DNA of 64,000 bases from a virus, in IMG/VR virus record IMGVR_UViG_3300049460_000196, positions 32,001 to 96,000 of that record. One strand, given 5' to 3'. This document shows, piece by piece, positions 29,981 to 52,704 of the stretch (position 1 is the first letter of the stretch; each line of letters begins with the position of its first letter). The notes beneath the pieces were generated by a model that did not search any database, was not told where the DNA came from, and saw nothing but the letters and a program-made list of their open reading frames with translations. A program made the position numbers and the translations under genes.

Positions 29981-30024
29981 ATTTCACCATAAATGTATTC
30001 CTGTATTTATGGTGAATCTATGGT

Positions 30025-30300: not shown

Positions 30301-30312
30301 ATTTGATATTAT

Positions 30313-31065
30313 TGGGGGCGGGTGGAGGACTCGAACCTCCGACAACGTCCTTACAAGGGAATTGAGGGTTATGCTGTGACTATCCTGATCAGGATCGTGC
30401 CTTTCGGCTTCTACAGCTAAATAAGGTCGCGAGATTGCAGTCTCCACCTTTCTAACGCTTTCAAGGAGCATCAGCATGGATATTTATCCGCCAACTTTTC
30501 TTTATATAAAACAACACGCAATTACTGGCAAACTTTACTTTGGCAAAACCGCAAAGGACCCAGAAACTTATTTGGGATCAGGCACTTATTGGCGCAAGCA
30601 TATCAAAAAACATGGAACAGAACATGTCATTACTGTGTGGTATTGTTTGTTTTATGACACGACAACAATAAGTGAATTTGCATTATCATTTTCGGCAATG
30701 CACAACATTGTTGAATCTACAGATTGGGCAAATCTTAGGCCTGAAAATGGTCTAGATGGTAACCTTCCTGGAAATGTCCCGTGGAATGTCGGACTAGAAG
30801 CACACAATAAAGGCACAACCAGTCCAAACAAAGGGCGAACTTTGTCAGTTCGTTCTCAAGAACATAAAGACAAAATATCAGCAAGCTTAACTGGTAAAAC
30901 CAAGTCTAGTAAACCTCAACCCAATCGAAAAGCACGGGTACATGTAAAACACGACACCGTAATCTGCCCTCATTGCGGAAAAACTGGCGGAAGTAATATA
31001 ATGGGTAGGTGGCATTTTTCTAATTGTCCAGCTAAGACGTGCTCTACCAACTGAGCTAACCCGCC
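30313..31065 (-). tRNA. tRNA-Thr(TGT) interrupted by a ~680 nt insertion
   Basis: 5' half 31035-31065 (GGCGGGT..CGTCT) and 3' half 30313-30357 (CT TGT AA GGACG..ACCCGCC-C-CCA) are complementary. Confidence 0.8.
30476..31054 (+). CDS. GIY-YIG (Seg-like) homing endonuclease with NUMOD3
   Basis: FLYIKQH..TGKLYFGKT..Y.GSG; RSQEHKDKISASLTGK; CPHCGK; CTAAATA upstream. Confidence 0.88.
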   Translation: MDIYPPTFLYIKQHAITGKLYFGKTAKDPETYLGSGTYWRKHIKKHGTEHVITVWYCLFYDTTTISEFALSFSAMHNIVESTDWANLRPENGLDGNLPGNVPWNVGLEAHNKGTTSPNKGRTLSVRSQEHKDKISASLTGKTKSSKPQPNRKARVHVKHDTVICPHCGKTGGSNIMGRWHFSNCPAKTCSTN

Positions 31066-31075
31066 CAAAAACTGT

Positions 31076-31447
31076 TTAGCAGCCTGCCGCAGGGCCGCGA
31101 TGTGCCATGCCGTAGGCAATGTGATCGGAATTACTACCCGCCTCTGCAAGCATTTTGGCCATGCGAGCGCGAGTCATATCATCTTCGAGACGTTTAGCTT
31201 CAGCTTCAGTCTGGATGGCAAGTTGCAGGTGATTGCCGATGATGTTCAGCTTTTCTTGAGTAATGCCGGTCGGTTTACTGACTTCCAGATAACCACGGAG
31301 CCAGTAAACGAAATCGCGAGAATTCATTGGAGTTAATCCTTGTTGTTGTTCAATAGCTAGACGTCGAATCCCGTCTACCAGTGCCTGTAATAAGACTTGT
31401 TTGCTCATCATGTGGCAACTATACAACAACAAGGTGGTACCATGCAA
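31076..31447 (-). CDS. Hypothetical protein (start uncertain)
   Basis: DFVYWLRGYLE motif. Confidence 0.6.
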   Translation of the reverse strand: MHGTTLLLYSCHMMSKQVLLQALVDGIRRLAIEQQQGLTPMNSRDFVYWLRGYLEVSKPTGITQEKLNIIGNHLQLAIQTEAEAKRLEDDMTRARMAKMLAEAGSNSDHIAYGMAHRGPAAGC

Positions 31448-31449
31448 GC

Positions 31450-31911
31450 TTACATGATATCCAGATAATCAAACCGTTCGTCAGGAGACATTGGCGCTTC
31501 TTCGCTCAACATCTTGGGATTGAACGCCTTCAGGAAAGCCTGAATGTCGGCTTGGGAAATGCTTGTGATCTCGTCGTAAACCTTGTACTGCCATTCCACG
31601 AGTTCACGCTCGGAGAGGCGATCAGGCATGACCACAACGTCGCAAGCATCGAAGCTCGACGCTGGGTTGCTCCAACCGAAGTCGTTTATCCTAGGACGAA
31701 TCTCGGCGAGAACGCTCGCAACATCGGACAGCTTAACGTTGCAGACCACAAGCTCGGTATGCGAACCTTTTGGACGCCAGCTTTGAGGCACTTCTCCGGT
31801 GCCGTCCCAATCCTCAACACCCTTGTTGATCCAGTACTGACCCGTTATCGCGATTTGAACCAGCATCGAGTGCTCCTTAAGATTGGAAGATCGTGGTGCC
31901 GTACAGTTCAT
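31450..31911 (-). CDS. Hypothetical protein (probable start MLVQ)
   Basis: ORF with SD AAGGAG. Confidence 0.7.
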   Translation of the reverse strand: MNCTAPRSSNLKEHSMLVQIAITGQYWINKGVEDWDGTGEVPQSWRPKGSHTELVVCNVKLSDVASVLAEIRPRINDFGWSNPASSFDACDVVVMPDRLSERELVEWQYKVYDEITSISQADIQAFLKAFNPKMLSEEAPMSPDERFDYLDIM

Positions 31912-32242
31912 CGATGGTAAGGAAATCTACCACTGGCCGTCGGCCATTAACGAAGCCAAAAATCAGGCTGATGTATTTGAAACCGTTGACCAGTTCGCGG
32001 TTCACGTCGACCGTGCATGGGTAACCAGCAGCACGAAACTTAGCTGCCAAGCGTTTCGCTGGCAACAGCTCGGATTTGTAGGGGTCAATCGTCAGGCGAG
32101 TAAAACCACCTTGCACAATCGACACATCACTTTTGTCGAACGTGTAACCAGCTGTTTGCATGAGTGCGACCATGTTGTTGATCGTCTTCTGTGCTTTTTT
32201 GCTTGGCTGTTTCATCTTCTGCTCCGCTTGTCTGTTTACCAT
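31877..32242 (-). CDS. Hypothetical protein (probable start MKQP)
   Basis: ORF with SD GGAG. Confidence 0.65.
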   Translation of the reverse strand: MVNRQAEQKMKQPSKKAQKTINNMVALMQTAGYTFDKSDVSIVQGGFTRLTIDPYKSELLPAKRLAAKFRAAGYPCTVDVNRELVNGFKYISLIFGFVNGRRPVVDFLTIDELYGTTIFQS

Positions 32243-32295
32243 GTTCCTATTATAGGTTCATTTGAAACATGAATCAAGCAAAAGATGAAAATATT

Positions 32296-32374
32296 TGGTA
32301 GCTGTGGTCGGCCTCGAACCGACAGAACCCTTTGTTTTGAGCAAAGGAGGTATTCCAATTCCCTTCACACAGCC
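32296..32374 (-). tRNA. tRNA-Leu(CAA), short variable region
   Basis: CT CAA AA, CCA. Confidence 0.8.
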
Positions 32375-32380
32375 ATTGTT

Positions 32381-32455
32381 TGGTGGAGCTAGTGGGACTC
32401 GAACCCACGACCTACGACATGCCATGCCGCCGCTCTCCCTCTGAGCTATAACCCC
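32381..32455 (-). tRNA. tRNA-Ala(GGC)
   Basis: G3-U70, AT GGC AT, CCA. Confidence 0.9.
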
Positions 32456-32461
32456 ATTGTT

Positions 32462-32545
32462 TGGTCCCCTGGGCGAGATTCGAACTCGCAAAAGCCTGCC
32501 TTCTGACGACAGTAGGTGTACCAGATTTCCACTAGCCACCAGGGG
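32462..32545 (-). tRNA. Atypical tRNA-Leu(CAG)
   Basis: Same architecture as 26704-26787; GT CAG AA. Confidence 0.72.
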
Positions 32546-32554
32546 TAAAAATAC

Positions 32555-32727
32555 GTATTAGGGAAGGCAGGTTGGATTCAGGGATTGCCGCCCCTTGCAC
32601 CAACTTTCGGACTTGGCCCATTAGCCGCACAGACAGGGAACGTCGACTCCCCTATCCAGCATCCGACACTACCGTTCGACTTCCACATCAGTGCCTGTTC
32701 CTACCAGGTTGCTGCCTTCTCTAATAC
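32555..32727 (-). ncRNA. Unknown structured RNA inside the tRNA array
   Basis: 16 bp closing stem GTATTAGAGAAGGCAG/CTGCCTTCCCTAATAC with internal hairpins. Confidence 0.55.
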
Positions 32728-32756
32728 ATACTTGGTATTTCATACTTGAAAAACTT

Positions 32757-32834
32757 TGGTGGATATGGGGAGACTCGAACTCCCACACGACGGTCTCTGA
32801 AACCGCCAGGTATACCAATTCCCTTCACATATCC
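32757..32834 (-). tRNA. tRNA-Leu(CAG), short variable region
   Basis: TT CAG AG, CCA. Confidence 0.8.
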
Positions 32835-32836
32835 TT

Positions 32837-32912
32837 TGGTGCTGTTAGTTGGACTCGAACCAACCACCTCATACCTACCAAGTATGTGCTCTGCCAGATG
32901 AGCTATAACAGC
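32837..32912 (-). tRNA. tRNA-Thr(GGT)
   Basis: Cloverleaf, CCA. Confidence 0.9.
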
Positions 32913-32913
32913 A

Positions 32914-32989
32914 TGGACCCACCAACACGACTCGAACGTGCGACCTCCTGAGTCGAAATCAGGCGCTCTTCCAACTGAGCTACGGTGGG
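32914..32989 (-). tRNA. tRNA-Arg(TCG)
   Basis: Cloverleaf with A20, TT TCG AC, CCA. Confidence 0.9.
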
Positions 32990-32990
32990 A

Positions 32991-33275
32991 TTAACTTTTG
33001 AACACGGAGTCTAACCACCAATGTGGGAACAAACCGTCCTCATACAACTCTTGCTTGAACAACGTGCCCAAGCACATATCCTCTTTCCACATTTTCACAT
33101 GGACATTCAGATACATTTTACCAACAGCATAACCATTATTGCCTGACACTGGTGTGCCAAATGATTCGCCGTTAAACAACTCCAACATAGCGTCATCGCT
33201 ATGATCTAACACATGATCCCAGTGACGAGAAAAGACTCTGTACACTTCGCACATGCGTTTGAACTTCTTACTCAC
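32991..33275 (-). CDS. Hypothetical protein
   Basis: 94 aa ORF, GTG start. Confidence 0.6.
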   Translation of the reverse strand: MSKKFKRMCEVYRVFSRHWDHVLDHSDDAMLELFNGESFGTPVSGNNGYAVGKMYLNVHVKMWKEDMCLGTLFKQELYEDGLFPHWWLDSVFKS

Positions 33276-33381
33276 ACCGTTGATGGTTAGCTTTGGCTGA
33301 CCTTTGTTGCGTTTAGCTGTGACATGGCATCCTCCAGGGTTATTATTCGATTTCTATAGTCACGACGAAAGACGATGAGTC

Positions 33382-33495
33382 TTAGATTGCCAGTGCTGCC
33401 AGGCGCAAGGTGGTCGTGGTTGCCAAACCCAGAGTCAGAGCGGTTGCGGTAACGGTTAGCGATAAGTCAGCTTTTACGTAAGTGCGGTTGCTCAT
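33382..33495 (-). CDS. Thr/Leu/Ala-rich micro-ORF (candidate leader peptide)
   Basis: SD GGAG; MSNRTYVKADLSLTVTATALTLGLATTTTLRLAALAI. Confidence 0.55.
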   Translation of the reverse strand: MSNRTYVKADLSLTVTATALTLGLATTTTLRLAALAI

Positions 33496-33517
33496 ATGAG
33501 ACTCCATGGGTTAAAAG

Positions 33518-33593
33518 TGGTGGTGATGAAGGGATTCGAACCCCCGGTCCTCTCCGTATGAAGGAGTTGCTTTACCAACTAAGCTACATCACC
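33518..33593 (-). tRNA. tRNA with CAT anticodon (Met or Ile2)
   Basis: TT CAT AC, CCA. Confidence 0.85.
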
Positions 33594-33884
33594 GTATTGA
33601 TTGTATTGCATAAACCAAGCTGGGCAGCGTTGCCCGCAAAGTCCATTCAAATTCAGGTCTTGTTTGATTCAAGCTTATTATATCACCCAAAGGAAATACT
33701 CGACCGTCTGGGTGCAAATAAGTGAATCGCATTTTGTTTGGATACCATTGGTAGAAAGTAGCTGGGCAAACCTTTGGATCATCCCTTGGGATCAGTATGC
33801 CAGTCACACCGCAGTCGCACAGGCGATGCGTCATAACTGCTGCAACTATCTTCTTAAATGTCTCTACCGTCATGGTATCATGTT

Positions 33885-33961
33885 TGGTTGCGGATGGGTG
33901 GATTCGAACCACCGACGTAGAGGTTATGAGCCTCCTCTTCTGACCACTGAATTACACCGCA
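33885..33961 (-). tRNA. tRNA with CAT anticodon (fMet-like, bulged acceptor)
   Basis: CT CAT AA, CCA. Confidence 0.75.
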
Positions 33962-34051
33962 TTTGTTTGATCGACCCTCTTGCGAGGATGGCACTTTCTA
34001 CAGCAGCCACTCCGTCTGTGAGCTTACGCTCGATCACTAAGCCGAAACCTG

Positions 34052-34360
34052 TTATCGTTTGACCAACTTACCGTCAACGACTTTAAATTCTTCATCTTCG
34101 AGTGGATGTGGCTCATCCACTTTGCTATCTGGGGTTGCCAATGCAGGATTGAGAACCTTTACTGTCTCCCAGAGCTTCCAGTCTATCGAATCAATTTTGG
34201 TTTGCATCTGTGCCAACTTATCGTTGATGCCCTGGAGGCCATATGCCATCACACGAAACATCTCAAGTTGAACTTCAATTTGCAAACGCTGCAATATTAC
34301 GGGATCTTCTGAATCCAAAGCATTCCGGTAACTCTTTACTGTATTTTCTATATCGCTCAT
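34052..34360 (-). CDS. Hypothetical protein
   Basis: 102 aa ORF with promoter upstream. Confidence 0.7.
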   Translation of the reverse strand: MSDIENTVKSYRNALDSEDPVILQRLQIEVQLEMFRVMAYGLQGINDKLAQMQTKIDSIDWKLWETVKVLNPALATPDSKVDEPHPLEDEEFKVVDGKLVKR

Positions 34361-34428
34361 ATGTCTCTCGCAGGATCAAGTCCTTTCTTGTTATTATACG
34401 GACAAGAGACAACAGTGCAATATATGAT

Positions 34429-34505
34429 TGGTGGACAAGACCAGGAATCGAACCCGGCTTCCTCCGCCCTACTTCCAAGGCGACTGATTAGCGGATCACT
34501 TGCCC
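34429..34505 (-). tRNA. Ala-acceptor tRNA-like RNA with irregular anticodon arm
   Basis: GGGCAAG/CTTGTCC (G3-U70), T arm, CCA; loop region TTGGAAGTAG. Confidence 0.55.
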
Positions 34506-34511
34506 AATGAC

Positions 34512-34587
34512 TGGTTGTTGAGAACGGGATCGAACCGTTGACCTGAGGTTTATCGAACCCCTGCTCTACCGACTGAGCTACTCAACA
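34512..34587 (-). tRNA. tRNA-Ile(GAT)
   Basis: TC GAT AA, CCA. Confidence 0.85.
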
Positions 34588-34593
34588 TCATAT

Positions 34594-34657
34594 AACTGGA
34601 TGCCATTCTTTGGTTTTCGGAAAAGGAAAATTTAGAAAGGTTTGCTGTTGGCATCCA
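34594..34657 (-). ncRNA. ACAGCAA family 5 (short, pyrimidine-rich loop)
   Basis: TGGATGCC-A-ACAGCAA...GGCATCCAGTT. Confidence 0.65.
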
Positions 34658-34724
34658 AAACTTGGTAGGATAAGTCAAGTATTCCCTTTGGCGGGGAACG
34701 TAGTTTATCAAACTTATCCAAAAC

Positions 34725-34809
34725 TGGTACCCTGGGCGAGACTCGAACTCGCAAACCTTACGGCACATGGACCTGAACCATGCGTGTCTTCCAATTCCAC
34801 CACCAGGGC
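34725..34809 (-). tRNA. tRNA-Leu(CAG)
   Basis: Type II cloverleaf, CCA. Confidence 0.9.
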
Positions 34810-34824
34810 ATTACTGTATTACTA

Positions 34825-35027
34825 TCAAGTCGCGTGCTGCTACGCCAAAGGAGAGCTGCCCATACGCCGCCCAAGACGACTTTTGGCTACATGCTTCTAT
34901 CAACATTTATCCCTGCCACATCACCATTCTATACCACCACTAGGGTTCGGCATTATGGCATTTCGCGGCTCGGGTGCTTCGCTCCACTCATTAAGGATGG
35001 CTGCTTCTAAGCCAACCACAAGCTTGA
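34825..35027 (-). ncRNA. 23S rRNA GTPase-associated-centre (H43-H44, L11-binding) mimic
   Basis: GTTGGCTTAGAAGCAGCCATC matches 23S helix 43; GCGTAGCAGC resembles the helix 44 loop; closed by TCAAG/CTTGA. Confidence 0.75.
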
Positions 35028-35063
35028 CTCAAGTACCTGACTGGCTGTCAGGATTTGGAGAAA

Positions 35064-35139
35064 TGGTAGTTCCTGACGGGTTCGAACCATCGACATCCAC
35101 TTTGTAAGAGTGGCGCTCTACCAGCTGAGCTAAGGAACC
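35064..35139 (-). tRNA. tRNA-Val(TAC)
   Basis: Cloverleaf, CCA. Confidence 0.92.
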
Positions 35140-35141
35140 AT

Positions 35142-35217
35142 TGGGGTGAAGGATGGGGATCGAACCCACGACGACCGGAATCACAATCCGGGACTCTACC
35201 ACTGAGCTACCTACACC
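35142..35217 (-). tRNA. tRNA-His(GTG)
   Basis: G-1, C73, CCA. Confidence 0.92.
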
Positions 35218-35227
35218 ATTGAAACTG

Positions 35228-35896
35228 TTACGGAAACTTCATCTTTCGACCAAGCTTCCAATTTCGAGAAAGCCACAAATCAATGTCTTCTCGATTTATC
35301 TTTATCGTGCGCTTTTCTATTTCAGAAAATATCCACATAGTGCCATACTGCGAGTTACCAGTACCGCGTGCGCTTTTTGATACGTTATCTCCAATTTTCT
35401 TCTTGGTTTCTTCGGTATGATTTTTACCTTTAAAACTGGGAGGCGGCGTGCCTGGTAAATTGGCTATGCCTGCTGATGATCTATTGGTTTTTGTTTGTTT
35501 TGCCCATTCGGGGTCATTATCTCTCAACCATTGCTGCCTTTGTTGACTGATCTTATTCTTGGCAGTTTGACGACATGAATCGGCATTAATGATATTGTTA
35601 GGCCAACTGCTACCACCTAAAGATATGTTCATACACATCGGATCAGTTAGCATTTCGGCACACACCAATTCTGCTTCGCGTTCTCTCAACCACTCCCTAC
35701 TGAAGTAATGCTCGAGAATCGCACATACGTGATTTTCCTTACCGTGAACATTAACTGATCGCCCAAGCAGTTTGCCAGAACCAATATAACCGTCATTCAG
35801 GTCATAAGTGCTGTGCATACCCAAGTAATATTTTCCAGTCACAATGCACGTGGTGCGATATATGTAATGATACTGTCTGTTGGTCATATCCGCCAT
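35228..35896 (-). CDS. GIY-YIG (Seg-like) homing endonuclease with NUMOD3
   Basis: HYIYRTTC.VTGKYYLGMHST...YIGSG; FKGKNHTEETKKKI. Confidence 0.9.
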   Translation of the reverse strand: MADMTNRQYHYIYRTTCIVTGKYYLGMHSTYDLNDGYIGSGKLLGRSVNVHGKENHVCAILEHYFSREWLREREAELVCAEMLTDPMCMNISLGGSSWPNNIINADSCRQTAKNKISQQRQQWLRDNDPEWAKQTKTNRSSAGIANLPGTPPPSFKGKNHTEETKKKIGDNVSKSARGTGNSQYGTMWIFSEIEKRTIKINREDIDLWLSRNWKLGRKMKFP

Positions 35897-35933
35897 TGTA
35901 TATGACCATTGATATGGTGCAATAAAGTATTAA

Positions 35934-36007
35934 GGGGTGGCCACCGAGAATTGAACTCGAGTAAACGGGATCACAACCCGCGTCATTAACCACTATGATA
36001 TGGCCAC
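35934..36007 (-). tRNA. tRNA-His(GTG), second copy lacking G-1 and full CCA
   Basis: Cloverleaf, TT GTG AT. Confidence 0.8.
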
Positions 36008-36080
36008 ACCTTAATACTCTAAAGTGACGGTTACGAGCTCCGTCAATCGCTCTATATTGCGCTCGCTTTCTACTACTGTT

Positions 36081-36154
36081 TGGCAGGCCATGAGGGAATC
36101 GAACCCCCGTCCTTGGTTTTGGAGACCAGTACACTACCGTTGTGCTAATGACCT
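36081..36154 (-). tRNA. tRNA-Trp(CCA)
   Basis: Cloverleaf, CCA. Confidence 0.9.
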
Positions 36155-36160
36155 AATGTA

Positions 36161-36243
36161 TGGCAGGAGCTGTGGGACTCGAACCCACGTGGATTTCTCG
36201 ACGGCTTTGGAGACCGTTGCAATCGCCGCTATGCGAAACTCCT
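36161..36243 (-). tRNA. tRNA-Trp(CCA), long variable region
   Basis: CT CCA AA; 12-nt variable region. Confidence 0.82.
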
Positions 36244-36325
36244 GTTGAAACTAATTGTACCTGAGCCTCGAATTCCACGACGCCAGTCTATCCTTCAGGT
36301 ACGTTTTGACGTATTGCTTGGCAGC

Positions 36326-36658
36326 TTACGCTGCTTTGTCTGGATATTGCTCATCCAGAATATCGATGTAATACAGTGGGCTCATGCCAGGTTCCAGGAA
36401 ATGGACCTTGCTGAAGCCGTTTGCTTCATCGATCATGCTATCTTGTGGCTGGATGGCGCCGGCATACTTACGGAAGCCTGGCTTGTTCATCATCTTGCCT
36501 GTTGCTGGATCAATGGAACCCCATTCAGTCCAGTCTGTTTTACTACGACCATCAATCGGTTCAACGAAGTAGCGTTTGCCAGTACGTTGCGAGTTGACGA
36601 TAAAACGACCAGTGTCGTCTGTGTTGGTAAGGAACCGTTTAAGGAAGTCGGCATTCAT
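36326..36658 (-). CDS. Phage hypothetical protein
   Basis: MNADFLKRFLTNTDDTGRFIV.SQRTGKRYFVEPI. Confidence 0.75.
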   Translation of the reverse strand: MNADFLKRFLTNTDDTGRFIVNSQRTGKRYFVEPIDGRSKTDWTEWGSIDPATGKMMNKPGFRKYAGAIQPQDSMIDEANGFSKVHFLEPGMSPLYYIDILDEQYPDKAA

Positions 36659-36711
36659 GTTATTATTCTCGGGTTGATTTAAAATCTCCGAGACATTGTC
36701 ATCGGAGCAGC

Positions 36712-36738
36712 TTAGATTGTGATGACAAAGTGGTACAT
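36712..36738 (-). CDS. Micro-ORF MYHFVITI (candidate leader)
   Basis: SD GGAGG; ORF segment TTGTCATC pairs with downstream GATGACAA. Confidence 0.45.
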   Translation of the reverse strand: MYHFVITI

Positions 36739-36769
36739 GATAGCCTCCATGGCTGGTTAATAAAATGTT

Positions 36770-36846
36770 TGGAGCGGATAGCGAGGTTCGAACTCGCGAC
36801 ATTCACGTTGGCAACGTGATGCTCTACCAGACTGAGCTATATCCGC
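36770..36846 (-). tRNA. tRNA-Gly(GCC)
   Basis: Cloverleaf, U73, CCA. Confidence 0.92.
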
Positions 36847-36852
36847 ATTGTT

Positions 36853-36927
36853 TGGCGACGCCTAGGGGGATCGAACCCCTGACCTTCGGATGGACAATCC
36901 ACTGCTCTTCCGCTGAGCTAAGGCGCC
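36853..36927 (-). tRNA. tRNA-Asp(GTC)
   Basis: TT GTC CA, G73, CCA. Confidence 0.85.
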
Positions 36928-36980
36928 AATTTGTTAGGAAATTTCCTTAAAGATGATTTGCATTCATGTTTAAAGAAACT

Positions 36981-37056
36981 TGGTGGACGCGGTGGGGTTC
37001 GAACCCACGACCTTCGGATTAAGAGTCCGTTACTCTACCAGCTGAGTTACACGTCC
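36981..37056 (-). tRNA. tRNA-Lys(CTT)
   Basis: Cloverleaf, CCA. Confidence 0.92.
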
Positions 37057-37062
37057 GTACTG

Positions 37063-37138
37063 TGGTGGAAGTGGAGGGACTCGAACCCCCGTCGCACCGG
37101 TTAAGAGCCGGGCCTCTAGCCTGTTGAGTTACACTTCC
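37063..37138 (-). tRNA. tRNA-Lys(CTT)
   Basis: Cloverleaf, CCA. Confidence 0.88.
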
Positions 37139-37151
37139 AAGTGTATTTGAT

Positions 37152-37239
37152 TGGTGGGAGCAGTGGGGATCGAACCCACTCTGGACTTTCGTCTCGCCGG
37201 ATTAAAAGTCCGGTGCCTACCCAATTCGGCATTACTCCC
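37152..37239 (-). tRNA. tRNA-Lys(TTT) with long variable arm
   Basis: CT TTT AA; variable hairpin GAC-GAAA-GTC. Confidence 0.82.
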
Positions 37240-37249
37240 TGTGAAACAA

Positions 37250-37324
37250 TGGTAGGGCCGCAGGAGCTCGAATCCTGTTTGTCTGGTTAAAAGCCAGATA
37301 CTTCACCATTAAAGTTTCAACCCC
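37250..37324 (-). tRNA. tRNA-Lys(TTT)
   Basis: CT TTT AA, CCA. Confidence 0.85.
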
Positions 37325-37395
37325 TTTGATTTGACGTGGCACACGTCGATCTCGGGGGTGGCAGGAGCAATCCAATCAAACAACTACACTTGGAA

Positions 37396-37440
37396 TTACT
37401 TAGTCACCCCCGAAAGTTTGCCAGATTTGTCACTTTCCAT
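37396..37440 (-). CDS. Lys-containing micro-ORF MESDKSGKLSGVTK (candidate leader)
   Basis: SD AAAGGAG; 3' part TCGGGGGTGAC pairs with GCCACCCCCGA at 37342-37352. Confidence 0.55.
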   Translation of the reverse strand: MESDKSGKLSGVTK

Positions 37441-37470
37441 GACAGGCTCCTTTCAGAAATGTAATTTGGA

Positions 37471-37593
37471 TATTGCGATTTACCAGGTATCCCAATGACG
37501 AGACCAATCGCTCCAACAGGCTGGAGTTCCAGATGATGCGCATTCAACTCGCGTTGACCATACGTGCCACTCACGGCATAACACCTCGCAATA
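37471..37593 (-). ncRNA. Unknown structured RNA
   Basis: Closing stem TATTGCGA/TCGCAATA with internal hairpins. Confidence 0.4.
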
Positions 37594-37598
37594 AAACT

Positions 37599-37674
37599 TG
37601 GTGGAGGATATCGGGATCGAACCGATGACCTTTAGCTTGCAAAGCTACTGCTCTCCCAGCTGAGCTAATCCCCC
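37599..37674 (-). tRNA. tRNA-Ala(TGC)
   Basis: Canonical, G3-U70. Confidence 0.93.
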
Positions 37675-37764
37675 AGGGTGGCAATGTTTGTACCGGTATG
37701 GCAAACATCACCCGCACATGCCGACTAGAACCTTTTCAGGGGATGAGGACATGAACGTTTAACT

Positions 37765-37841
37765 TGGTCTCCAGTGCAAGATTCGAACTTGCGCCCCATG
37801 GTCCCAAACCACGTGGATTAACCTGACTTTCCTAACCGGAG
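37765..37841 (-). tRNA. tRNA-Pro(TGG)
   Basis: TT TGG GA, CCA. Confidence 0.88.
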
Positions 37842-37850
37842 ATAAAAACT

Positions 37851-37890
37851 TGGTATCTAGTACTGGTCTCGAACCAGTGACCTCATCGAT
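37851..37890 (-). pseudogene. 3' half (nt 37-76) of a split tRNA, probably Val(GAC)
   Basis: AT-CGATG-AGGTC-T arm-ACTAGAT-A-CCA. Confidence 0.85.
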
Positions 37891-38148
37891 TTAATCGATT
37901 GTACCGTTGACTTTTATTTGTACAAGATCGCTAAACATTTTAGAGATCCCACTCAACTCATTCAAATAATCTTCCGTCAACTTATCGTCTTCGGTTAATT
38001 CAACTTTTAAATTAAGTTCAGCTCTTTGTTCTTGTACTTGTTTGTGAATAAGTGCAGTGGCCACTTGCAATGTGTCGATTGGTAAACTACTCGCCAACAT
38101 AGCTACTGCATTCCGAAGTGCCAATATTTGTACTTGAGTTGATGACAT
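37891..38148 (-). CDS. Hypothetical protein (cassette cargo)
   Basis: 85 aa, SD AAGGAG; stop lies exactly at the insertion junction. Confidence 0.7.
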   Translation of the reverse strand: MSSTQVQILALRNAVAMLASSLPIDTLQVATALIHKQVQEQRAELNLKVELTEDDKLTEDYLNELSGISKMFSDLVQIKVNGTID

Positions 38149-38207
38149 ATGATTCTCCTTTAGAACAAACAGGATGCACATGTTTTTGTCATACCGCAAT
38201 ATTATTC

Positions 38208-38282
38208 TGGTACTCACGGAAGGAATTGAACCTTCGACCCTCTCCACGTCAAGGAGGCATTCTACCACTGAACTACGTGAGC
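38208..38282 (-). tRNA. tRNA-Val(GAC), carried in the cassette
   Basis: TT GAC GT loop, CCA. Confidence 0.88.
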
Positions 38283-38283
38283 A

Positions 38284-38637
38284 TTATCTTTTCTTGTTAC
38301 CCCAGGTAGGGGTCTGTCTGTGGCAGTTTGGACACAGAAATCTCAAATTATCTGGATGATTGTTGGTCTTTACCCCATCCATATGGTCGATATCCAAACT
38401 AAGTGGTTTACCGCACCAGTCACTTACTGCACAACATGAACAGGCATAACCGTCGCGTTCCGTTAAGAACTTGATCATCGCCGGGCTATTATAATGAACA
38501 GCACCTTGCAATATTTTCGGTTTGGTAACCGATATCCAGGTAAATGCGTGTTGGCATTTGTTCGAGCAGTATTTGCCATTAAATGCTGGCGGTTTATACT
38601 TTGTTGGTTTACCACAATTGATACATGATCTTTCCAT
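38284..38637 (-). CDS. HNH endonuclease
   Basis: CINCG..YCSNKC; LDIDHMDGVKTNNHPDNLRFLCPNCH; TATAAATA upstream. Confidence 0.9.
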   Translation of the reverse strand: MERSCINCGKPTKYKPPAFNGKYCSNKCQHAFTWISVTKPKILQGAVHYNSPAMIKFLTERDGYACSCCAVSDWCGKPLSLDIDHMDGVKTNNHPDNLRFLCPNCHRQTPTWGNKKR

Positions 38638-38675
38638 ATAAGCACCTTTTCAGGTATTTATAAGAGCGATCTGGT

Positions 38676-38710
38676 TCAACGATGTGCTCTACCAACTGAG
38701 CTAACTAGAT
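38676..38710 (-). pseudogene. 5' half (nt 1-35) of the split tRNA
   Basis: ATCTAGT-TA-D arm-CATCG-TT-GA; pairs with the 3' half at 37851. Confidence 0.85.
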
Positions 38711-38719
38711 ATTGAAACT

Positions 38720-38794
38720 TGGCAGCGAATCTAGGGCTCGAACCTAGGACCTTGAGATTCAAAATCTCCTGCTCTACCTCTGAGCTAATCCGCA
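38720..38794 (-). tRNA. tRNA-Gln(TTG)
   Basis: Cloverleaf, G73, CCA. Confidence 0.88.
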
Positions 38795-38803
38795 ACTGAA
38801 ACT

Positions 38804-38883
38804 TGGCGACCTAGATGGGTATCGAACCCACCTGAATATCTTCCGTGACAGGGAAGTGACCACTCCATGCAGTCCCCTAGGCC
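38804..38883 (-). tRNA. tRNA-Asp(GTC)
   Basis: CT GTC AC, CCA. Confidence 0.85.
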
Positions 38884-38900
38884 ATATTACTAATTGTCAA

Positions 38901-38972
38901 TGGTCCCTCGTGATGGAGTCGAACCACCCTATTAGCGTTCGTAGCGCCAATGCCGTATCCCACGGACGAGAG
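38901..38972 (-). tRNA. Compact tRNA-Arg(ACG)
   Basis: Same architecture as 20063-20134; CT ACG AA. Confidence 0.75.
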
Positions 38973-38984
38973 AAATATTCTTAG

Positions 38985-39070
38985 TTGCGGGCCCTGGATT
39001 TGAACCAGGACAAGCATTAGATGTCTCGGGATTATGAGCCCCGCGTGTTACCAGGTTACACTAACCCGCG
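38985..39070 (-). tRNA. Initiator tRNA-fMet(CAT) with long variable region, no CCA
   Basis: C1-A72 mismatch, G-rich anticodon stem, 17-nt variable region. Confidence 0.75.
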
Positions 39071-39100
39071 ACTAAGAATACTTGGTATTACATACTTGAA

Positions 39101-39179
39101 TGGTGCGTCAGGCAGGGTTCGAACCTGCATGTGTCCAGTTACCTTTCGCCTGGTTCGTAGCCAAGGGGGATACTGACGC
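39101..39179 (-). tRNA. Atypical tRNA-Arg(ACG), D-loop displaced into the variable region
   Basis: GCGTCAG-TA-TCCCC-CTTGG-CT ACG AA-CCAGG-CGAAAGGTAACTGGACACAT-T arm-CTGACGC-A-CCA. Confidence 0.68.
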
Positions 39180-39181
39180 TT

Positions 39182-39256
39182 TGGTAGTTCCTGTTGGGAT
39201 CGAACCAACGACCTTCGCCTTGTAAGGGCGCTGCGCTACCTCTGCGCCAAGGAACC
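39182..39256 (-). tRNA. tRNA-Val(TAC)
   Basis: Cloverleaf, CCA. Confidence 0.9.
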
Positions 39257-39272
39257 ATTGCATTGTTGATTG

Positions 39273-39349
39273 TGGTCGCTTCTGATAGTATCGACGTATC
39301 GTCTACCCCTCTTCACGGGGCCGCTAGTACCATTCTCAGCTAAGAAGCA
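39273..39349 (-). tRNA. tRNA-Phe(GAA), divergent T loop
   Basis: GT GAA GA loop; T loop GTCGATA. Confidence 0.65.
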
Positions 39350-39382
39350 AGTTTTTATCAACAACGATTTACTACAAAAATC

Positions 39383-39457
39383 TGGCAGGGAATGTTGGGC
39401 TTGAACCAACGACCTTCGGATTCAGAATCCGCTGCTCTACCTCTGAGCTAATCCCCA
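39383..39457 (-). tRNA. tRNA-Gln(CTG)
   Basis: Cloverleaf, CCA. Confidence 0.88.
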
Positions 39458-39474
39458 ACTGTGTACTACTAAAC

Positions 39475-39549
39475 TGGTGCCCCAGGATGGAATCGAACCA
39501 CCGCACGCTGCTTACAAAACAGCACCTCTACCATTAAGGATACAAGGGC
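39475..39549 (-). tRNA. tRNA-Thr(TGT)
   Basis: TT TGT AA, CCA. Confidence 0.85.
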
Positions 39550-39562
39550 GTAATATCGTTTG

Positions 39563-39647
39563 CTCCGAGAGCTGGATTCGAACCAGCGGCGGCCTTTACG
39601 GCGACGGATTAACAGTCCGGTCTCTGCTACCACTCGAGTACCTCGGA
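39563..39647 (-). tRNA. tRNA-Asn(GTT) with long variable arm, no CCA
   Basis: CT GTT AA; variable hairpin GCC-GTAAA-GGC. Confidence 0.8.
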
Positions 39648-39675
39648 GCAAACAATACTACCTATAAATCATATG

Positions 39676-39748
39676 CTGTCAAGACTGGGCTCGAACCAGT
39701 GACCCGATGATTAACAGTCATCTGCTCTACCAACTGAGCTACATGACA
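39676..39748 (-). tRNA. tRNA-Asn(GTT), no CCA
   Basis: Canonical cloverleaf. Confidence 0.88.
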
Positions 39749-39766
39749 GCATATGATTCATAAACT

Positions 39767-39844
39767 TGGTGGTGTTGGGCGGCCTCGAACCGCCAAGCAA
39801 CAGGATCTCGACCTGTTAGGTATACCAATTCCCTTCACAACACC
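39767..39844 (-). tRNA. tRNA-Leu(GAG), short variable region
   Basis: TC GAG AT loop, CCA. Confidence 0.75.
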
Positions 39845-39845
39845 T

Positions 39846-39922
39846 TGGTAGTCCCTGTTGGATTTGAACCAACGACCTATGCGTTATCAACACATTGCTC
39901 TAACCAGCTGAGCTAAGGAACC
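39846..39922 (-). tRNA. tRNA-Ile(GAT)
   Basis: Cloverleaf, CCA. Confidence 0.92.
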
Positions 39923-39930
39923 TTCGTATT

Positions 39931-39990
39931 AACGGGATGACTTTTGGTTTCTGTTTTCAAAAGAAGTTTTTAGTTGCTGTACGCATCCCA
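39931..39990 (-). ncRNA. ACAGCAA family 6 (short)
   Basis: GGGATG-CGT-ACAGCAA...CATCCCGTT. Confidence 0.6.
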
Positions 39991-40012
39991 TAAGTCTTGC
40001 GACTCATTTTCT

Positions 40013-40088
40013 TGGCTAGGGTTGATGGACTCGAACCACCGACATACGGGATCAAAACCCGCTGTTCTACCAACTGAACTAAACCCCA
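40013..40088 (-). tRNA. tRNA-Gln(TTG)
   Basis: Cloverleaf, CCA. Confidence 0.9.
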
Positions 40089-40099
40089 ACTGTAAACCA

Positions 40100-40174
40100 T
40101 GGTCGTTGATATTGGTATCGAACCAATCTCTATGCCTTATCAAGACATTGCTAATCCATCTCAGCTAATCAACG
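40100..40174 (-). tRNA. tRNA-Ile(GAT)
   Basis: TT GAT AA, CCA. Confidence 0.85.
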
Positions 40175-40184
40175 ATTTAATACT

Positions 40185-40261
40185 TGGCGGAACAGACGGG
40201 GCTCGAACCCGCGACCTTCGCCGTGACAGGGCGACGCTCTAACCAACTGAGCTACTGCTCC
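40185..40261 (-). tRNA. tRNA-Asp(GTC)
   Basis: Canonical cloverleaf. Confidence 0.93.
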
Positions 40262-40305
40262 AACGACATGCAGGGCAGTTTTGCCTCACATCATGTTATG
40301 AAATC

Positions 40306-40376
40306 TGGTGGACCGTACGGGACTCGAACCCGTGATAGAGCATTGCAAGTGCCCCGCCAACCCCTGAAGACAGCCC
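40306..40376 (-). tRNA. Compact tRNA-Ala(TGC)
   Basis: G3-U70, reduced D arm, 6-bp anticodon stem, CCA. Confidence 0.7.
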
Positions 40377-40396
40377 AGAAATCTTATTACTAAACT

Positions 40397-40472
40397 TGGT
40401 GCAGTCAACTGGTATCGAACCAGTATCCCCGGACTTTCAAACCGTCGCATAGACCATCTTTGCTATGACTGC
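40397..40472 (-). tRNA. tRNA-Phe(GAA)
   Basis: TT GAA AG, CCA. Confidence 0.8.
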
Positions 40473-40502
40473 ATGAAACTTGATTGCTCAAGTTCTAAAA
40501 CT

Positions 40503-40577
40503 TGGTGCCCCCGGTTGGTATCGAACCAACCTCTACGACTTTTCAGGCCGTCGCTAATCCATCTCAGCTACAGGGGC
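40503..40577 (-). tRNA. tRNA-Phe(GAA)
   Basis: CT GAA AA, CCA. Confidence 0.88.
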
Positions 40578-40604
40578 ATATTCACATTATTCAAATTCAC
40601 TATG

Positions 40605-40678
40605 TCAGATGTGAAGGGATCGAACCTTCGACCTCATGGTCCCAAACCACGCGCTCTCCCTGGCTGAGCTAACACCTG
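40605..40678 (-). tRNA. tRNA-Pro(TGG), no CCA; first tRNA of the array
   Basis: Canonical cloverleaf. Confidence 0.88.
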
Positions 40679-40874
40679 ACATAATAAACTTGAATAATGT
40701 GTGTAAATGAATGTCGATGAACTGATCTTCATTTACACACATGAACTTGATTTTACTATCCGCGTTATCGCCGCGTGTTCATCCCAAGTTCCGCCCATTT
40801 GACTCTCTTTTAAGTGTGAGCCGAGGATCTCGTTCCCTCATTTTCACTGTACTGCTTGCTGCTTTTCGTGTCCC

Positions 40875-40913
40875 AAAACAAAAAACCCCGGGACTTTTCA
40901 GTTTCCCGGGGTT
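40875..40913 (-). terminator. Intrinsic terminator (attenuator) before the tRNA array
   Basis: AACCCCGGGA-loop-TCCCGGGGTT followed by TTTTGTTTT. Confidence 0.85.
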
Positions 40914-40932
40914 CTGTGGAGGAGCTTAGACT

Positions 40933-41079
40933 TTACATCTTCGCTCGTCCCTTAATCCCGGGCACGGTAATATTAAACAACTTCGCATCAATCGCCAGCG
41001 GCCAGACAGCCATACGCACGGTCGCTGGAAGGCGGCGTGTCGCTTGCTGTTTAGGTTGATGGAAATTGAAGGCGTTCAT
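40933..41079 (-). CDS. 48 aa candidate attenuator leader peptide
   Basis: MNAFNFHQPKQQATRRLPATVRMAVWPLAIDAKLFNITVPGIKGRAKM; stop 20 nt before the terminator; contains CCCGGGA complementary to the terminator arms. Confidence 0.7.
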   Translation of the reverse strand: MNAFNFHQPKQQATRRLPATVRMAVWPLAIDAKLFNITVPGIKGRAKM

Positions 41080-41207
41080 TTTAATTTACTCGTTTCTCTC
41101 GAAAAGTTTATGCAGGGAACAACATTGCTCTCTGCTTCATATCTATTTAGTTAAGTGACTCAAATCCCTGCACAAAAGCACAGAAAACTGAGGTTTTAAC
41201 AAATAGC

Positions 41208-41342
41208 AACAAGTTTTAAGCCGTTCACTGTGGAAATTCGCATCCCACGTAATCGCCGCTGTACTATCCCCGCCGCCCCAGCACTACAAGAGCGCCTCAA
41301 ATGCGATTCACCGGCAGGAAACATGAAAGCTTAAAACTTGTT
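41208..41342 (-). ncRNA. Unknown structured RNA with its own promoter
   Basis: 14 bp closing stem AACAAGTTTTAAGC/GCTTAAAACTTGTT; TTGACA-17-TAGAGT at ~41359-41387. Confidence 0.55.
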
Positions 41343-41422
41343 ACCACTTAGTTTGTAACACTCTACAGCATAATTTATAAATGTCAAGAATTATTTTTGC
41401 CTTCTTGTCATTTATTTTCAGC

Positions 41423-41525: not shown

Positions 41526-41703
41526 ACTGGCAATTTACTGCGTGCCACTTTGTTGCTGCATCATGTGTTGAACTTTACAGAACTAATTTCGTAAAGTCAA
41601 ACACTTTTTGAAATCTTTTTACAACAACGACATCTTGCTGTTTTGCTGCAACAGAAGCCACTTTACATGGCTTCCTGTGTCTGGTCAAATATGCTTTGAC
41701 TTT

Positions 41704-41950
41704 AACTGGATGGTCCGACGGTCGTTTTTACTGTTTATCGTGGAGTCCTCAGTAACGTAACTGTTGATGTCTTCCCCGGATCTAACCGAGCGTCAATCAA
41801 CCAGCCCTTTATAGTTACTGCCATCGACTACACTATGGCACCTCGCTGCACCATGCGTCTAGTTCACGTCCTACTAGCAAATAGTTGAGTCTCAAGTATT
41901 GCTACAATCTCCCAACACATCATTTTTAGGTGAGTTGCTGTACCCATCCA
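41704..41950 (-). ncRNA. ACAGCAA family 7 (long cargo)
   Basis: TGGATGG-GT-ACAGCAA...CCATCCAGTT. Confidence 0.6.
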
Positions 41951-42019
41951 AGGGTGTCAGATCGTTGATGCTTGCGTGATAGTTGCCTATCCCATGTGGT
42001 CCAACGATCCAACAAATTT

Positions 42020-42335
42020 AACAGGATTAGCTGTTTCCCTTTTCATTTAAGCGCACGTCAGGATCCATATACGCCGAGATGGATTACCATCATCATCTAG
42101 GTTTCTGTCTAGCCCATACAGGGTTCTCGTCCCCGACACAGTGTGAAGAACAGGTGGTTTTCACAACCCATTCGATCTTGTCACACGCACAGTTCTCCTC
42201 GTCCTCAACAATCCGCTTCAAAGCCACAGACAACTTCCGGCTCCACGAACTTTCCCACGCTGTCATAGTAGTTGAGGTGGAAAACAACACTTTTAAAGTT
42301 GGCTTTTTTAGTGTGTTTTGCTGTATCTAATCCTA
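42020..42335 (-). ncRNA. ACAGCAA family 8 (long cargo)
   Basis: AGGATTAG-AT-ACAGCAA...CTAATCCTGTT; TTGCAT-17-TATATT promoter upstream. Confidence 0.6.
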
Positions 42336-42424
42336 CCAGCGATTTCCGGATTAACGTTGTCGCCAGGTCACTAATATAACGTACTGGTACTCGTGATGCA
42401 ATAACTTTTTGAATTCTTTTTGAA

Positions 42425-51129: not shown

Positions 51130-52704
51130 TTACTGATTTGCGCGAGCGCGGACTTCTTCCAGATCGTATTCTTTCAGGATTTGACCGTTGTACCACACGT
51201 CTTGCATGACTTCGGTGTGATCCTCGGTCATGTCTTCGATACGGATGGTCATGTACTCGCCGACCTTGCTTTGCACCACGGTCAAGCGACCTGCTTTGCT
51301 ACGCTTACCCGAGTCGGTGATTGGATCCTTGAACACGTCGACCCATACGCCGTCAACTTCGGCCGCGCACGTCTTTTCAGCGAACTTGTAGGTATCGCGG
51401 TTGACTTGTTGCAGCAGACCACCACCCTGACCGAAGACCATGTTTTCGATCGAGAAGCCGGCCGATTTCACTGCCATGCAAATGCGCTCGAAATCTTCAG
51501 GTTTCGACAAGCCGTCACCTTGCAGGATGCGGACAACGTTCAGGACTTTGTAGCCCTTGCTGTTGACCGTAACGCCGAAGCCTTCTTCGAAGATCTTCAG
51601 CAGTTCCAGGATGACCGTGACTGCGTCGCCGCTGTCTGGACGAACAACCAGCTTGATGCCTTTGTCCAGGATCTTTTGGCGCAGATCGCCTTTCGCGAAT
51701 TCACGTGCCAGGTTGAAGATGTCGTAGCCGTCGCTGACGATCGAGATCAACGTACCGACACCAAAGCGGCCGAATTCGTCGATGATGTCGTTCACGGTTT
51801 TCAGCTCGCCGTCACGACCACGCATGGTCATGATGCTGTGTTCAGTTGCGAACACGCTGTAGGCCGACATTTCGCTGTTGTAGTACGTGTTCGCGAACAG
51901 CGCACCCGTGATAGTGTCGGTGCCCATTGCACCCGTTGCCAGGTGAGCGGCGCCGCCGATACCAGCCGATACGATGCTCGAAACGCCGCGGGCGCCGAAG
52001 TCGTGGAACATGAACGCAATTGCTTCAGCGATCGACAGATCCGAGGTTTCGCTGATGTACTTCTTCAGGATGTTACGAACGGTCATGGAACGCGACGCAA
52101 CCGTCGTTGGGTACCAGACTGCACGCAGCATCGAGGTCTCGAAGTATGCGACCATCCAGGCGAGTTCTGGGTCGGTGCTTTCGATGGTGACCAGCGCATT
52201 GCGGGAGTCGATCACCATACCTTCTGGCAGAGCGCGGATGCGCAGTGGCAGGTGGCCGCCGTAGACGTTGACCACTTTTTCCCAGTCTGCGCGGGGGAAG
52301 ATTTCTTTGCCGCCGATGATGTGCTTCTCGAAGAACGCTTCAGCCTGATCGATCATTTCCATGGTGATCGGGCGCAGACGTTTGATCCAGATTTGCAGAC
52401 CGAAGAACAGCACTTTCTCCGCAAACGAACGCGGTTCGATGTAGCTGAACGCACCGGTCACGCCCAAACGGCCGTACATTGCTTGGTGGCACAGCTTGTA
52501 CGAGTCAACGTCCAGGATGACGTTGTCTTCAGGCTTTTCGATCGTGCGGGGATCACCCAGCAGTTTCAGATCAGCCCACAGTTTAGCGCGACGGATGGAG
52601 TCGGCGATGAACTGGTCAGCTTGTGCTTTAGCGGCATCCAGGGTGGCTACCGATACGGCTTGTTTGGTATAGCTGGTTTCGATTACGTTGTCTTCAGTTT
52701 TCAT
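51130..52704 (-). CDS. nadV: Nicotinamide phosphoribosyltransferase
   Basis: DSYK, WYPTTVA, HDFGARG, ATEHS, RPDSGD, QGDG, KDPITD.GK.SK.G. Confidence 0.95.
   Translation of the reverse strand: MKTEDNVIETSYTKQAVSVATLDAAKAQADQFIADSIRRAKLWADLKLLGDPRTIEKPEDNVILDVDSYKLCHQAMYGRLGVTGAFSYIEPRSFAEKVLFFGLQIWIKRLRPITMEMIDQAEAFFEKHIIGGKEIFPRADWEKVVNVYGGHLPLRIRALPEGMVIDSRNALVTIESTDPELAWMVAYFETSMLRAVWYPTTVASRSMTVRNILKKYISETSDLSIAEAIAFMFHDFGARGVSSIVSAGIGGAAHLATGAMGTDTITGALFANTYYNSEMSAYSVFATEHSIMTMRGRDGELKTVNDIIDEFGRFGVGTLISIVSDGYDIFNLAREFAKGDLRQKILDKGIKLVVRPDSGDAVTVILELLKIFEEGFGVTVNSKGYKVLNVVRILQGDGLSKPEDFERICMAVKSAGFSIENMVFGQGGGLLQQVNRDTYKFAEKTCAAEVDGVWVDVFKDPITDSGKRSKAGRLTVVQSKVGEYMTIRIEDMTEDHTEVMQDVWYNGQILKEYDLEEVRARANQ

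Follow-up and report, generated by a model that had tools for sequence, protein, structure and literature searches.

The 64,000-nucleotide (nt) stretch of DNA described here, which we refer to throughout as the window, comprises bases 32001–96000 of a 113-kb viral contig (IMG/VR record IMGVR_UViG_3300049460_000196) with a G+C content of 47.6%. The source is a rhizosphere metagenome and the phage is uncultured. A 604-amino acid (aa) tail protein is 44–48% identical to proteins of the phiCbK-like giant siphophages of Caulobacter and Brevundimonas, and from this similarity the contig is likely to be part of a larger genome belonging to the same broad lineage. Our subject is a short open reading frame (ORF), here called the leader, that is followed by an intrinsic terminator and stands at the head of the main array of transfer RNA (tRNA) genes. 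The coordinates of leader, terminator and array are all read on the minus strand, and their main components are as follows.

40933–41079, minus strand: leader ORF, with the ATG at 41079, 48 sense codons and the TAA at 40935–40933
40975–41076, minus strand: codons 2–35, the proposed sensing zone, with 34 of 34 codons readable by array tRNAs
40954–40965, minus strand: putative antiterminator strand (seg1), GUGCCCGGGAUU, codons 39–42, the proposed partner of the terminator 5′ arm
40918–40950, minus strand: nested hairpin that includes the stop codon, lying between seg1 and the terminator 5′ arm and bringing the two strands together
40875–40915, minus strand: intrinsic terminator, with a CCCCGGG-based stem of 10–12 pairs and then TTTTTTGTTTT
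40868–40878, minus strand: seg4, UUUUGGGAC, able to pair with the terminator 3′ arm in RNA that has read through; in the minimum-energy fold of the full-length RNA its partner is seg1
28233–40678, minus strand: tRNA unit behind the terminator, with about 41 tRNA genes for 16 amino acids and with HNH and other small ORFs interspersed

An earlier note on this DNA had pointed to the 48-codon ORF and to a strong terminator 20 nt beyond it. The ORF is present, running from 41079 to 40933, and the terminator stem begins 19 nt past the TAA; the stem-loop, at about 40915–40882, has a predicted energy of -21 to -25 kcal/mol. The leader peptide contains exactly 16 kinds of amino acid, lacking Ser, Tyr, Cys and Glu, and the central observation of the note, that the tRNAs behind the terminator serve the same 16, holds up. 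ARAGORN identifies 50 tRNA genes in the window, every one of them on the minus strand. Three more come from Rfam, and our manual reading assigns them to Met(CAT), Thr(TGT) and Lys(TTT); the 16-amino-acid set is confirmed. The unit ends at the next strong minus-strand terminator (stem 28205–28232), and a permissive Rfam scan of 28000–40700 gives no candidate for a canonical Ser, Tyr, Cys or Glu tRNA, one of the findings that the note had named as speaking against it. ARAGORN also calls a ‘Ser(ACT)’ tRNA at 26704–26787, with a poor D arm and anticodon stem, that is not called by Rfam. We note that this 84-nt candidate forms part of a minus-strand pair at 26626–26787 together with a 71-nt Arg(CCG). 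In both, the acceptor and T arms are good but the D and anticodon arms are aberrant, and Rfam calls neither.

The leader also samples synonymous codons in the way that had been described, with all four Pro codons and both codons each for Asn, Phe, Gln and Lys. The idea that all 16 amino acids are sampled stands as far as the set itself is concerned, but Gly is not really sampled; its codons, GGG41 and GGA44, lie in the 3′ part of the ORF and are not read by the array tRNA-Gly(GCC). These are the only two leader codons that the array cannot read, and the first of them is in the middle of codons 40–42 (CCC GGG ATT). Ser, Tyr, Cys, Glu and Gly have zero occurrences in codons 2–35 in all nine variants of the leader family (see below).

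Several comparisons within the contig give a measure of how unusual the leader is. Among 706 contig ORFs of 35–70 aa it is the sole one without Ser, Tyr, Cys and Glu, and the Monte Carlo probability of an equal amino acid set is 2e-5 to 9e-5. The array can read 83% of the codons in the long ORFs of the phage, and the longest initial array-decodable run among 993 ORFs is that of the leader, with 39 codons after the ATG (the next is 31); the expected probability of such a run is about 6e-4. Codons 2–40 are thus all array-decodable, and the codons specific for the commodity take the form of a restricted repertoire instead of codon runs.

An internal control is provided by five tRNA genes elsewhere on the contig (contig coordinates).

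99487–100054, 105637–105731 and 112396–112487 of the contig, minus strand: tRNA genes separate from the main array, for Cys, Cys, Met, Ser(TGA) and Ser(GCT)

These five genes, two for Cys, two for Ser and one for Met, are located outside the window, 26–39 kb upstream on the same strand, and the phage can therefore supply Ser and Cys. No leader or terminator was found before the Met-Cys-Cys unit or before either Ser tRNA; there are promoter-like sites instead, with TTGACC-17-TAGAAT directly before tRNA-Met and, on our reading of the sequence, -10-like sites directly upstream of both Ser tRNAs. The proposal that the leader covers any tRNA that the phage can replace is thus wrong, and the exclusion of Ser and Cys from the leader although the phage owns such tRNAs indicates that what the leader matches is the unit that its terminator precedes. 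There is no Tyr or Glu tRNA on the contig, and the genome is incomplete.

Homologues of the leader were collected by an exhaustive phmmer search and then a profile search. Eight further leader peptides of 48–52 aa were found, giving nine variants in at least two clades, with 52–69% identity from one clade to the other. The homologues (P0002–P0010) are 52–92% identical to the leader; P0002 is near-identical, with four replacements, and the remainder are 52–69% identical. Eight of the nine variants, each 48 aa long, have the same aligned end position. P0010 has an in-frame insertion of four codons, and P0006 has an N-terminal extension that appears to back-translate to a sequence like that at 41080–41105, just upstream of the leader ATG. 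Further relatives (X2, X3, X8 and X4) are contigs from four read runs, known as alignment summaries; read runs with a small share of matches are not taken as evidence of habitat. In X2 and X3 there is a net +3-nt change at leader codons 22–23, such that the frame is conserved in relatives, being kept in nine variants and through two in-frame indels. These two contigs keep 40678–41350 at about 95% identity and have a different tRNA next, the first 30 nt of which look Pro-like. X8 carries the ORF and the 26 nt upstream of it with 10 differences and the tRNA-Pro with none, and has 40845–40929 (the terminator stretch) swapped for 82 other letters; the 15-bp hairpin that precedes the tRNA is also replaced, by a segment of similar length. 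Peptide-pattern scans of IMG/VR, Joint Genome Institute (JGI) metagenomes and GTDB genomes gave no match, the metagenome patterns being clade-1-specific and missing P0009, itself a JGI protein; BLAST against GenBank phages returned tRNA matches only.

The pattern of substitution in the family is the strongest of the new evidence. Across the nine variants (the insertion counted), codons 1–35 have acquired at least 36 derived residues, and none is Ser, Tyr, Cys or Glu. Under a null in which changes lead to single-nucleotide neighbours (22% of which give one of these four residues) the probability of this is about 1e-4, and under compositional nulls it is 5e-4 to 2e-3. Exchanges between Asp and Glu, Thr and Ser, and Phe and Tyr are those that proteins accept most readily. 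In codons 1–35 of the family there are 17 Asp and no Glu, 16 Thr and no Ser, and 26 Phe and no Tyr; the array holds Asp, Thr and Phe tRNAs, and lacks those for Glu, Ser and Tyr. The acceptance of Asp, Thr and Phe while their close counterparts never appear argues that the constraint follows tRNA identity and not chemistry. Ser and Glu are found in the relatives only at positions 38 (Ser38) and 44 (Glu44), and together with GGG41 and GGA44 in the leader itself this places all array-foreign codons within the last 11. All nine peptides keep V39, P40 and G41.

The product does not resemble a folded protein, nor does the region resemble a structured RNA. AlphaFold2, run on the family alignment, gives a predicted local distance difference test (pLDDT) score of 56 with zero secondary structure predicted, and the peptide has no family match in Pfam, PHROGs or Atlas. 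A folded small protein, such as a ribbon-helix-helix repressor like TrcR, was rejected on these grounds, and likenesses to an Arc-type beta-strand/Trp-Pro/helix arrangement and to the SecM arrest motif were seen by eye only and have the wrong spacing. RNA folding of the ORF region is no better than that of shuffles (z -0.66), and the ORF was rejected as a structured RNA on that basis; the best match of the leader region in Rfam 15 is His_leader, at 16.9 bits against a gathering threshold of 49 (E = 9.3). The frame is thus maintained, whereas the product is unlike a folded protein. We infer that the ORF is translated; its frame is conserved, and its ribosome-binding site is weak.

A transcription attenuator further requires two alternative RNA structures, and candidates for both are present. 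The antiterminator domain (40900–40965) folds at -27.8 kcal/mol, and the 10-nt core of seg1 (GCCCGGGAUU) matches the terminator 3′ arm (UCCCGGGGUU) at eight of 10 positions. When the transcript is cut short ahead of the 3′ arm, folding predicts a CCCGGG:CCCGGG antiterminator helix over the nested hairpin; in the full-length RNA, forcing the antiterminator costs only 3.9 kcal/mol relative to the minimum. On this model the two structures would compete during transcription. The complementarity of codons 40–42 to the terminator arms that had been described is present, and the pairing forms in the truncated transcript, but its strength is barely above chance, as set out below.

The following features precede the leader or occupy the interval from the terminator to the array.

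41360–41387, minus strand: sigma-70-like promoter, TTGACA-16-TAGAGT, with 10 of 12 consensus matches
41208–41342, minus strand: long-stem RNA, with a perfect 14-nt inverted repeat (41329–41342 with 41208–41221) closing about 110 nt
41080–41105, minus strand: conserved untranslated stretch 5′ of the ORF, in which the ribosome-binding site (GAGAGAAACGAG...) is weak; the X8 homology stops at 41105
40763–40844, minus strand: conserved 82-nt spacer block, in which X8 differs at two positions, both flanks being replaced
40697–40742, minus strand: perfect 15-bp hairpin, 18 nt before tRNA-Pro

The leader transcript probably starts at the 41387–41360 promoter, with a start site near 41352; this is the nearest good candidate in the sequence, 273 nt before the ATG. 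Minus-strand TTGACA-N16 sites are scarce, and between 27000 and 41500 there are just two, one of which is the leader promoter. X2 and X3 have other letters in place of 41351–41413. Folding of the predicted 496-nt transcript gives a z-score of -5.2. The long-stem RNA, for which Rfam gives no match, is conserved in X2 and X3 and absent from X8, which keeps the module from ORF to tRNA. No sigma-70-like site (≥9 of 12 matches) was found on the minus strand in the interval 40680–40875 between the terminator and tRNA-Pro, and a T4-type TATAAATA late promoter is absent from this spacer. Early-type units further upstream have a different arrangement in which a terminator is directly followed by a canonical promoter (e.g. 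43975–43954 and then 43943–43915). The spacer block has no second copy in the contig and no sigma-70-like site, and its exact 20–22-mers have no match in IMG/VR or the JGI metagenomes; a search of the contig found no repeated promoter motif and no second copy of the leader module. The 15-bp hairpin may be a processing site. In X2 and X3 there is a change at position 40732 from A-U to G-U, which we read as preserving the pairing solely on the minus-strand RNA.

On balance we favour, with modest confidence, the interpretation that this element is a multivalent leader-peptide transcription attenuator heading the main tRNA array. Transcription from the sigma-70-like promoter at 41387 would run into the 48-codon leader. 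With smooth translation, the lead ribosome at the last codons or the stop would sit between or on codons 39–42 and the terminator 5′ arm; the strands would be kept apart, the terminator hairpin would form, and transcription would end before tRNA-Pro. A stall in codons 2 to about 35 on an uncharged tRNA, or a failure of translation, would leave the codon 39–42 strand free to pair with the 5′ arm once that is made, so that no terminator forms and RNA polymerase proceeds into the array. The new array tRNAs would then relieve the shortage, closing a negative feedback loop. Because the first 35 codons specify solely amino acids that the array serves, a stall there would report a shortage that the array can cure. 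With the A site at codon 36 or beyond, or at the stop, a ribosome of standard footprint would cover or straddle codons 39–42 and stalls would signal nothing. The antiterminator is also expected to form without translation, and the element would thus terminate only under efficient translation.

It is an even call whether the fuller form of this proposal is right, in which one leader monitors decoding by about 15 tRNA species and gates about 41 tRNA genes in feedback, with the last 11 codons a ‘blind zone’ that tolerates non-array amino acids. The earlier interpretation is kept in so far as it tied the leader repertoire to the tRNAs behind the terminator and proposed a choice between terminator and antiterminator; its claims about the scope of replaceable tRNAs and the sampling of Gly need correction, and the antiterminator option that it raised is statistically weak. 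Its suggestion that host anticodon nucleases are the trigger is pure conjecture.

Several observations weigh against an attenuator, and we gather them here. The antiterminator pairing is short, with six G-C pairs plus flanks (p 0.04–0.06); the duplex between codons 39–42 and the terminator 5′ arm has an energy of -14.7 kcal/mol, which is equalled by 4.3% of shuffles and by 6.4% of natural 150-nt windows. When the leader is folded with a ribosome masking any one codon, the equilibrium fold retains the terminator in every case, and the switch would therefore have to be kinetic, as in trp. The leader lacks codon runs, with one to three occurrences for most of its amino acids, and a classical attenuator is sensitive only if several codons stand in tandem; single codons would presumably have to stall ribosomes for long enough to matter. 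The ribosome-binding site is weak (the anti-Shine-Dalgarno duplex is only -2.9 kcal/mol), the leader start region can pair with codons 33–38, and a structured leader RNA of 273 nt precedes the ORF. Finally, 17 of the 48 residues are invariant, which is more positional conservation than composition alone demands.

The minus strand of the window is also rich in small structured RNAs. One family, a stem-CAGCAA ‘handle’ RNA, has a GGAT-type stem of 6 or 7 bp (the longer form in six of the seven copies), a 3–4 nt spacer, CAGCAA, the closing strand and an immediate GTTA. There are seven clean copies on the minus strand (41706–41955 and 42022–42340, 39933–39990, 34596–34660, and near 8519, 7613 and 7479), and two are just upstream of the leader promoter, where a contig from a soil metatranscriptome, X4, matches both at about 90% identity. 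This RNA contig comes from a relative and spans its handle RNAs and a portion of a tRNA; the ORF lies outside it, and it says nothing on expression. Rfam places a full-length GOLLD RNA (RF02032, 203 bits, E 7e-56) at 14391–14843 (minus strand), in the tRNA-rich region, and at 22538–23017 (minus strand) ARAGORN predicts a permuted transfer-messenger RNA (tmRNA) with the tag ASLKCIVVP, which is doubtful as there is no Rfam tmRNA at the gathering threshold. The contig also carries nicotinamide adenine dinucleotide (NAD)-salvage and tail-fibre genes. At 51130–54030 (minus strand) of the window a nicotinamide phosphoribosyltransferase is paired with a cytidylyltransferase/NUDIX (NadR-like) gene, resembling a phage NAD-salvage module.

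Three other explanations of the locus need to be considered. The ORF could be an ordinary gene for a small basic protein, with the hairpin ending its own short unit, the array fed by leaky readthrough or an unrecognised phage promoter, and the repertoire match coincidental. The invariant residues and the tolerance of in-frame indels would both suit such a gene, the neighbouring early-type units are short promoter-gene-terminator cassettes of just this kind, and the conserved 82-nt block could hide a promoter that is not of the sigma-70 type. We nonetheless think this unlikely, because neither AlphaFold2 nor the family databases offer a fold or a family, no promoter-like site was found after the terminator, and acceptance of Asp, Thr and Phe but never Glu, Ser or Tyr over 36 substitutions is the opposite of normal protein evolution.

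Alternatively, the terminator could be a constitutive partial stop, or one overridden by a factor such as a phage antiterminator protein or a put-like RNA (the 41208–41342 element would be a candidate), with the ORF irrelevant to the decision. Processive antitermination is common in phages, there is a strongly structured RNA just downstream of the promoter, and the in-ORF pairing is statistically weak; however, the conserved frame and its restricted repertoire would be left unexplained, and X8 lacks the upstream structured element yet retains the ORF-to-tRNA module. We regard this explanation as improbable. That the region is a non-coding RNA or a spacer with an accidental frame, e.g. a divergent handle RNA of the family that fills 41700–42340, seems very improbable. 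Small RNA genes are abundant nearby and there is a CAGCAA at 41049–41044 with a 6-bp flanking stem, but this in-ORF site fails the handle-RNA pattern and was rejected as a member: its stem is a 6-bp CATCAA, the spacer is 6 nt, and a GTTG follows after 4 nt, as in chance matches. Moreover, the ORF region folds no better than shuffles, and the frame survives two in-frame indels and about 40% amino acid divergence.

It is an open question why dozens of tRNA genes are found in large phages and at what stage they are used. If the locus is an attenuator, the array would be held in reserve and released when decoding slows, whether from a late mismatch in codon usage, host shut-off or tRNA-cleaving defences, and the phage would make these tRNAs only when host decoding fails. 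The element would then be the most multivalent attenuator known and would extend the logic of trp and his attenuation from the supply of amino acids to the supply of tRNAs. The restricted alphabet of the leader also gives a sequence signature with which other phages can be searched.

We found nothing relevant in the literature on leader-peptide control of phage tRNA genes, and the closest parallels are with other systems. As in trpL, hisL, pheL, leuL and the multivalent thrL and ilvGMEDA leaders, there is a short ORF just before an intrinsic terminator, the ORF or its surroundings hold a strand that can pair with the terminator 5′ arm, and the leader codons would name the commodity that is sensed. 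The logic would be shared too, with a ribosome at the stop leading to termination and an upstream stall to readthrough. The differences are that the cargo here is tRNA genes and not biosynthetic enzymes, that there are no tandem codon runs and the repertoire is restricted to about 15 amino acids with one to a few samples of each, and that the antiterminator is much shorter with no anti-antiterminator (1:2-type) pairing evident; an untranslated leader is therefore predicted to give readthrough and not super-attenuation. The leaders of erm and cat type and attenuators of the vmlR, msrD and lmo0919 type also use a short ORF to gauge the progress of a ribosome, with a stall opening the downstream genes. 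Those resistance leaders respond to drug-bound ribosomes at peptide motifs, whereas here the proposed signal is tRNA supply and the cargo is tRNA genes. In Anabaena sp. PCC 7120 a 26-gene tRNA array, the trn operon, is induced under translational stress (PMC8421152), a report in which the words leader, attenuator and terminator are absent, and control is exerted at the promoter, where direct repeats are bound by the ribbon-helix-helix repressor TrcR (PMC10272220). An accessory tRNA array that is kept low and turned on when translation is impaired would be common to both, although the control in Anabaena is at the level of the promoter.

A similar and clearer arrangement is in the Caulobacter phage CcrKarma, a distant relative, in which a cassette of promoter, leader, terminator and tRNA block (JX100811, 51430–51830) has only its terminator annotated. 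The promoter, TTGACA-17-TAGGGT, is followed by an ATG 7 nt past the -10 hexamer, and the leader is, from this spacing, probably leaderless. The 32-codon ORF (L002:4667–4765) carries the run RQFVRQIQVVRNIR, in which the five amino acids of the block (F, V, I, Q and R) account for 13 of 14 consecutive residues, and which ranks first among 9123 windows. Within the ORF there is also a 12-bp partner for the terminator 5′ arm, with a pairing energy of -29.6 kcal/mol that is matched by none of 2000 shuffles, and beyond the terminator are the tRNAs Phe-Val-Ile-Ile-Val-Gln-Gln-Arg. The annotation by the CcrKarma authors places terminators directly before three tRNA blocks, the other two being at L002 2266–2495 and 1364–1468. 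A less clean leader candidate is gp083 (45 aa), before a Pro-Pro-Lys-Lys-Leu-Leu-Leu-Ser-Ser block, which is 51% S, L, P or K and is Thr- and Ala-rich too. There is no sequence similarity between the CcrKarma leader and the one described here, and the latter is more diffuse, with 48 codons, 15–16 amino acids, about 41 tRNAs and a weak antiterminator, as against runs of five amino acids, an eight-tRNA block and a highly significant 12-bp antiterminator. The order of the parts, the position of the partner strand just 3′ of the sensing codons, the tRNA cargo and, broadly, the lineage are nonetheless the same, and the CcrKarma cassette makes an attenuation mechanism credible in this lineage of phages.

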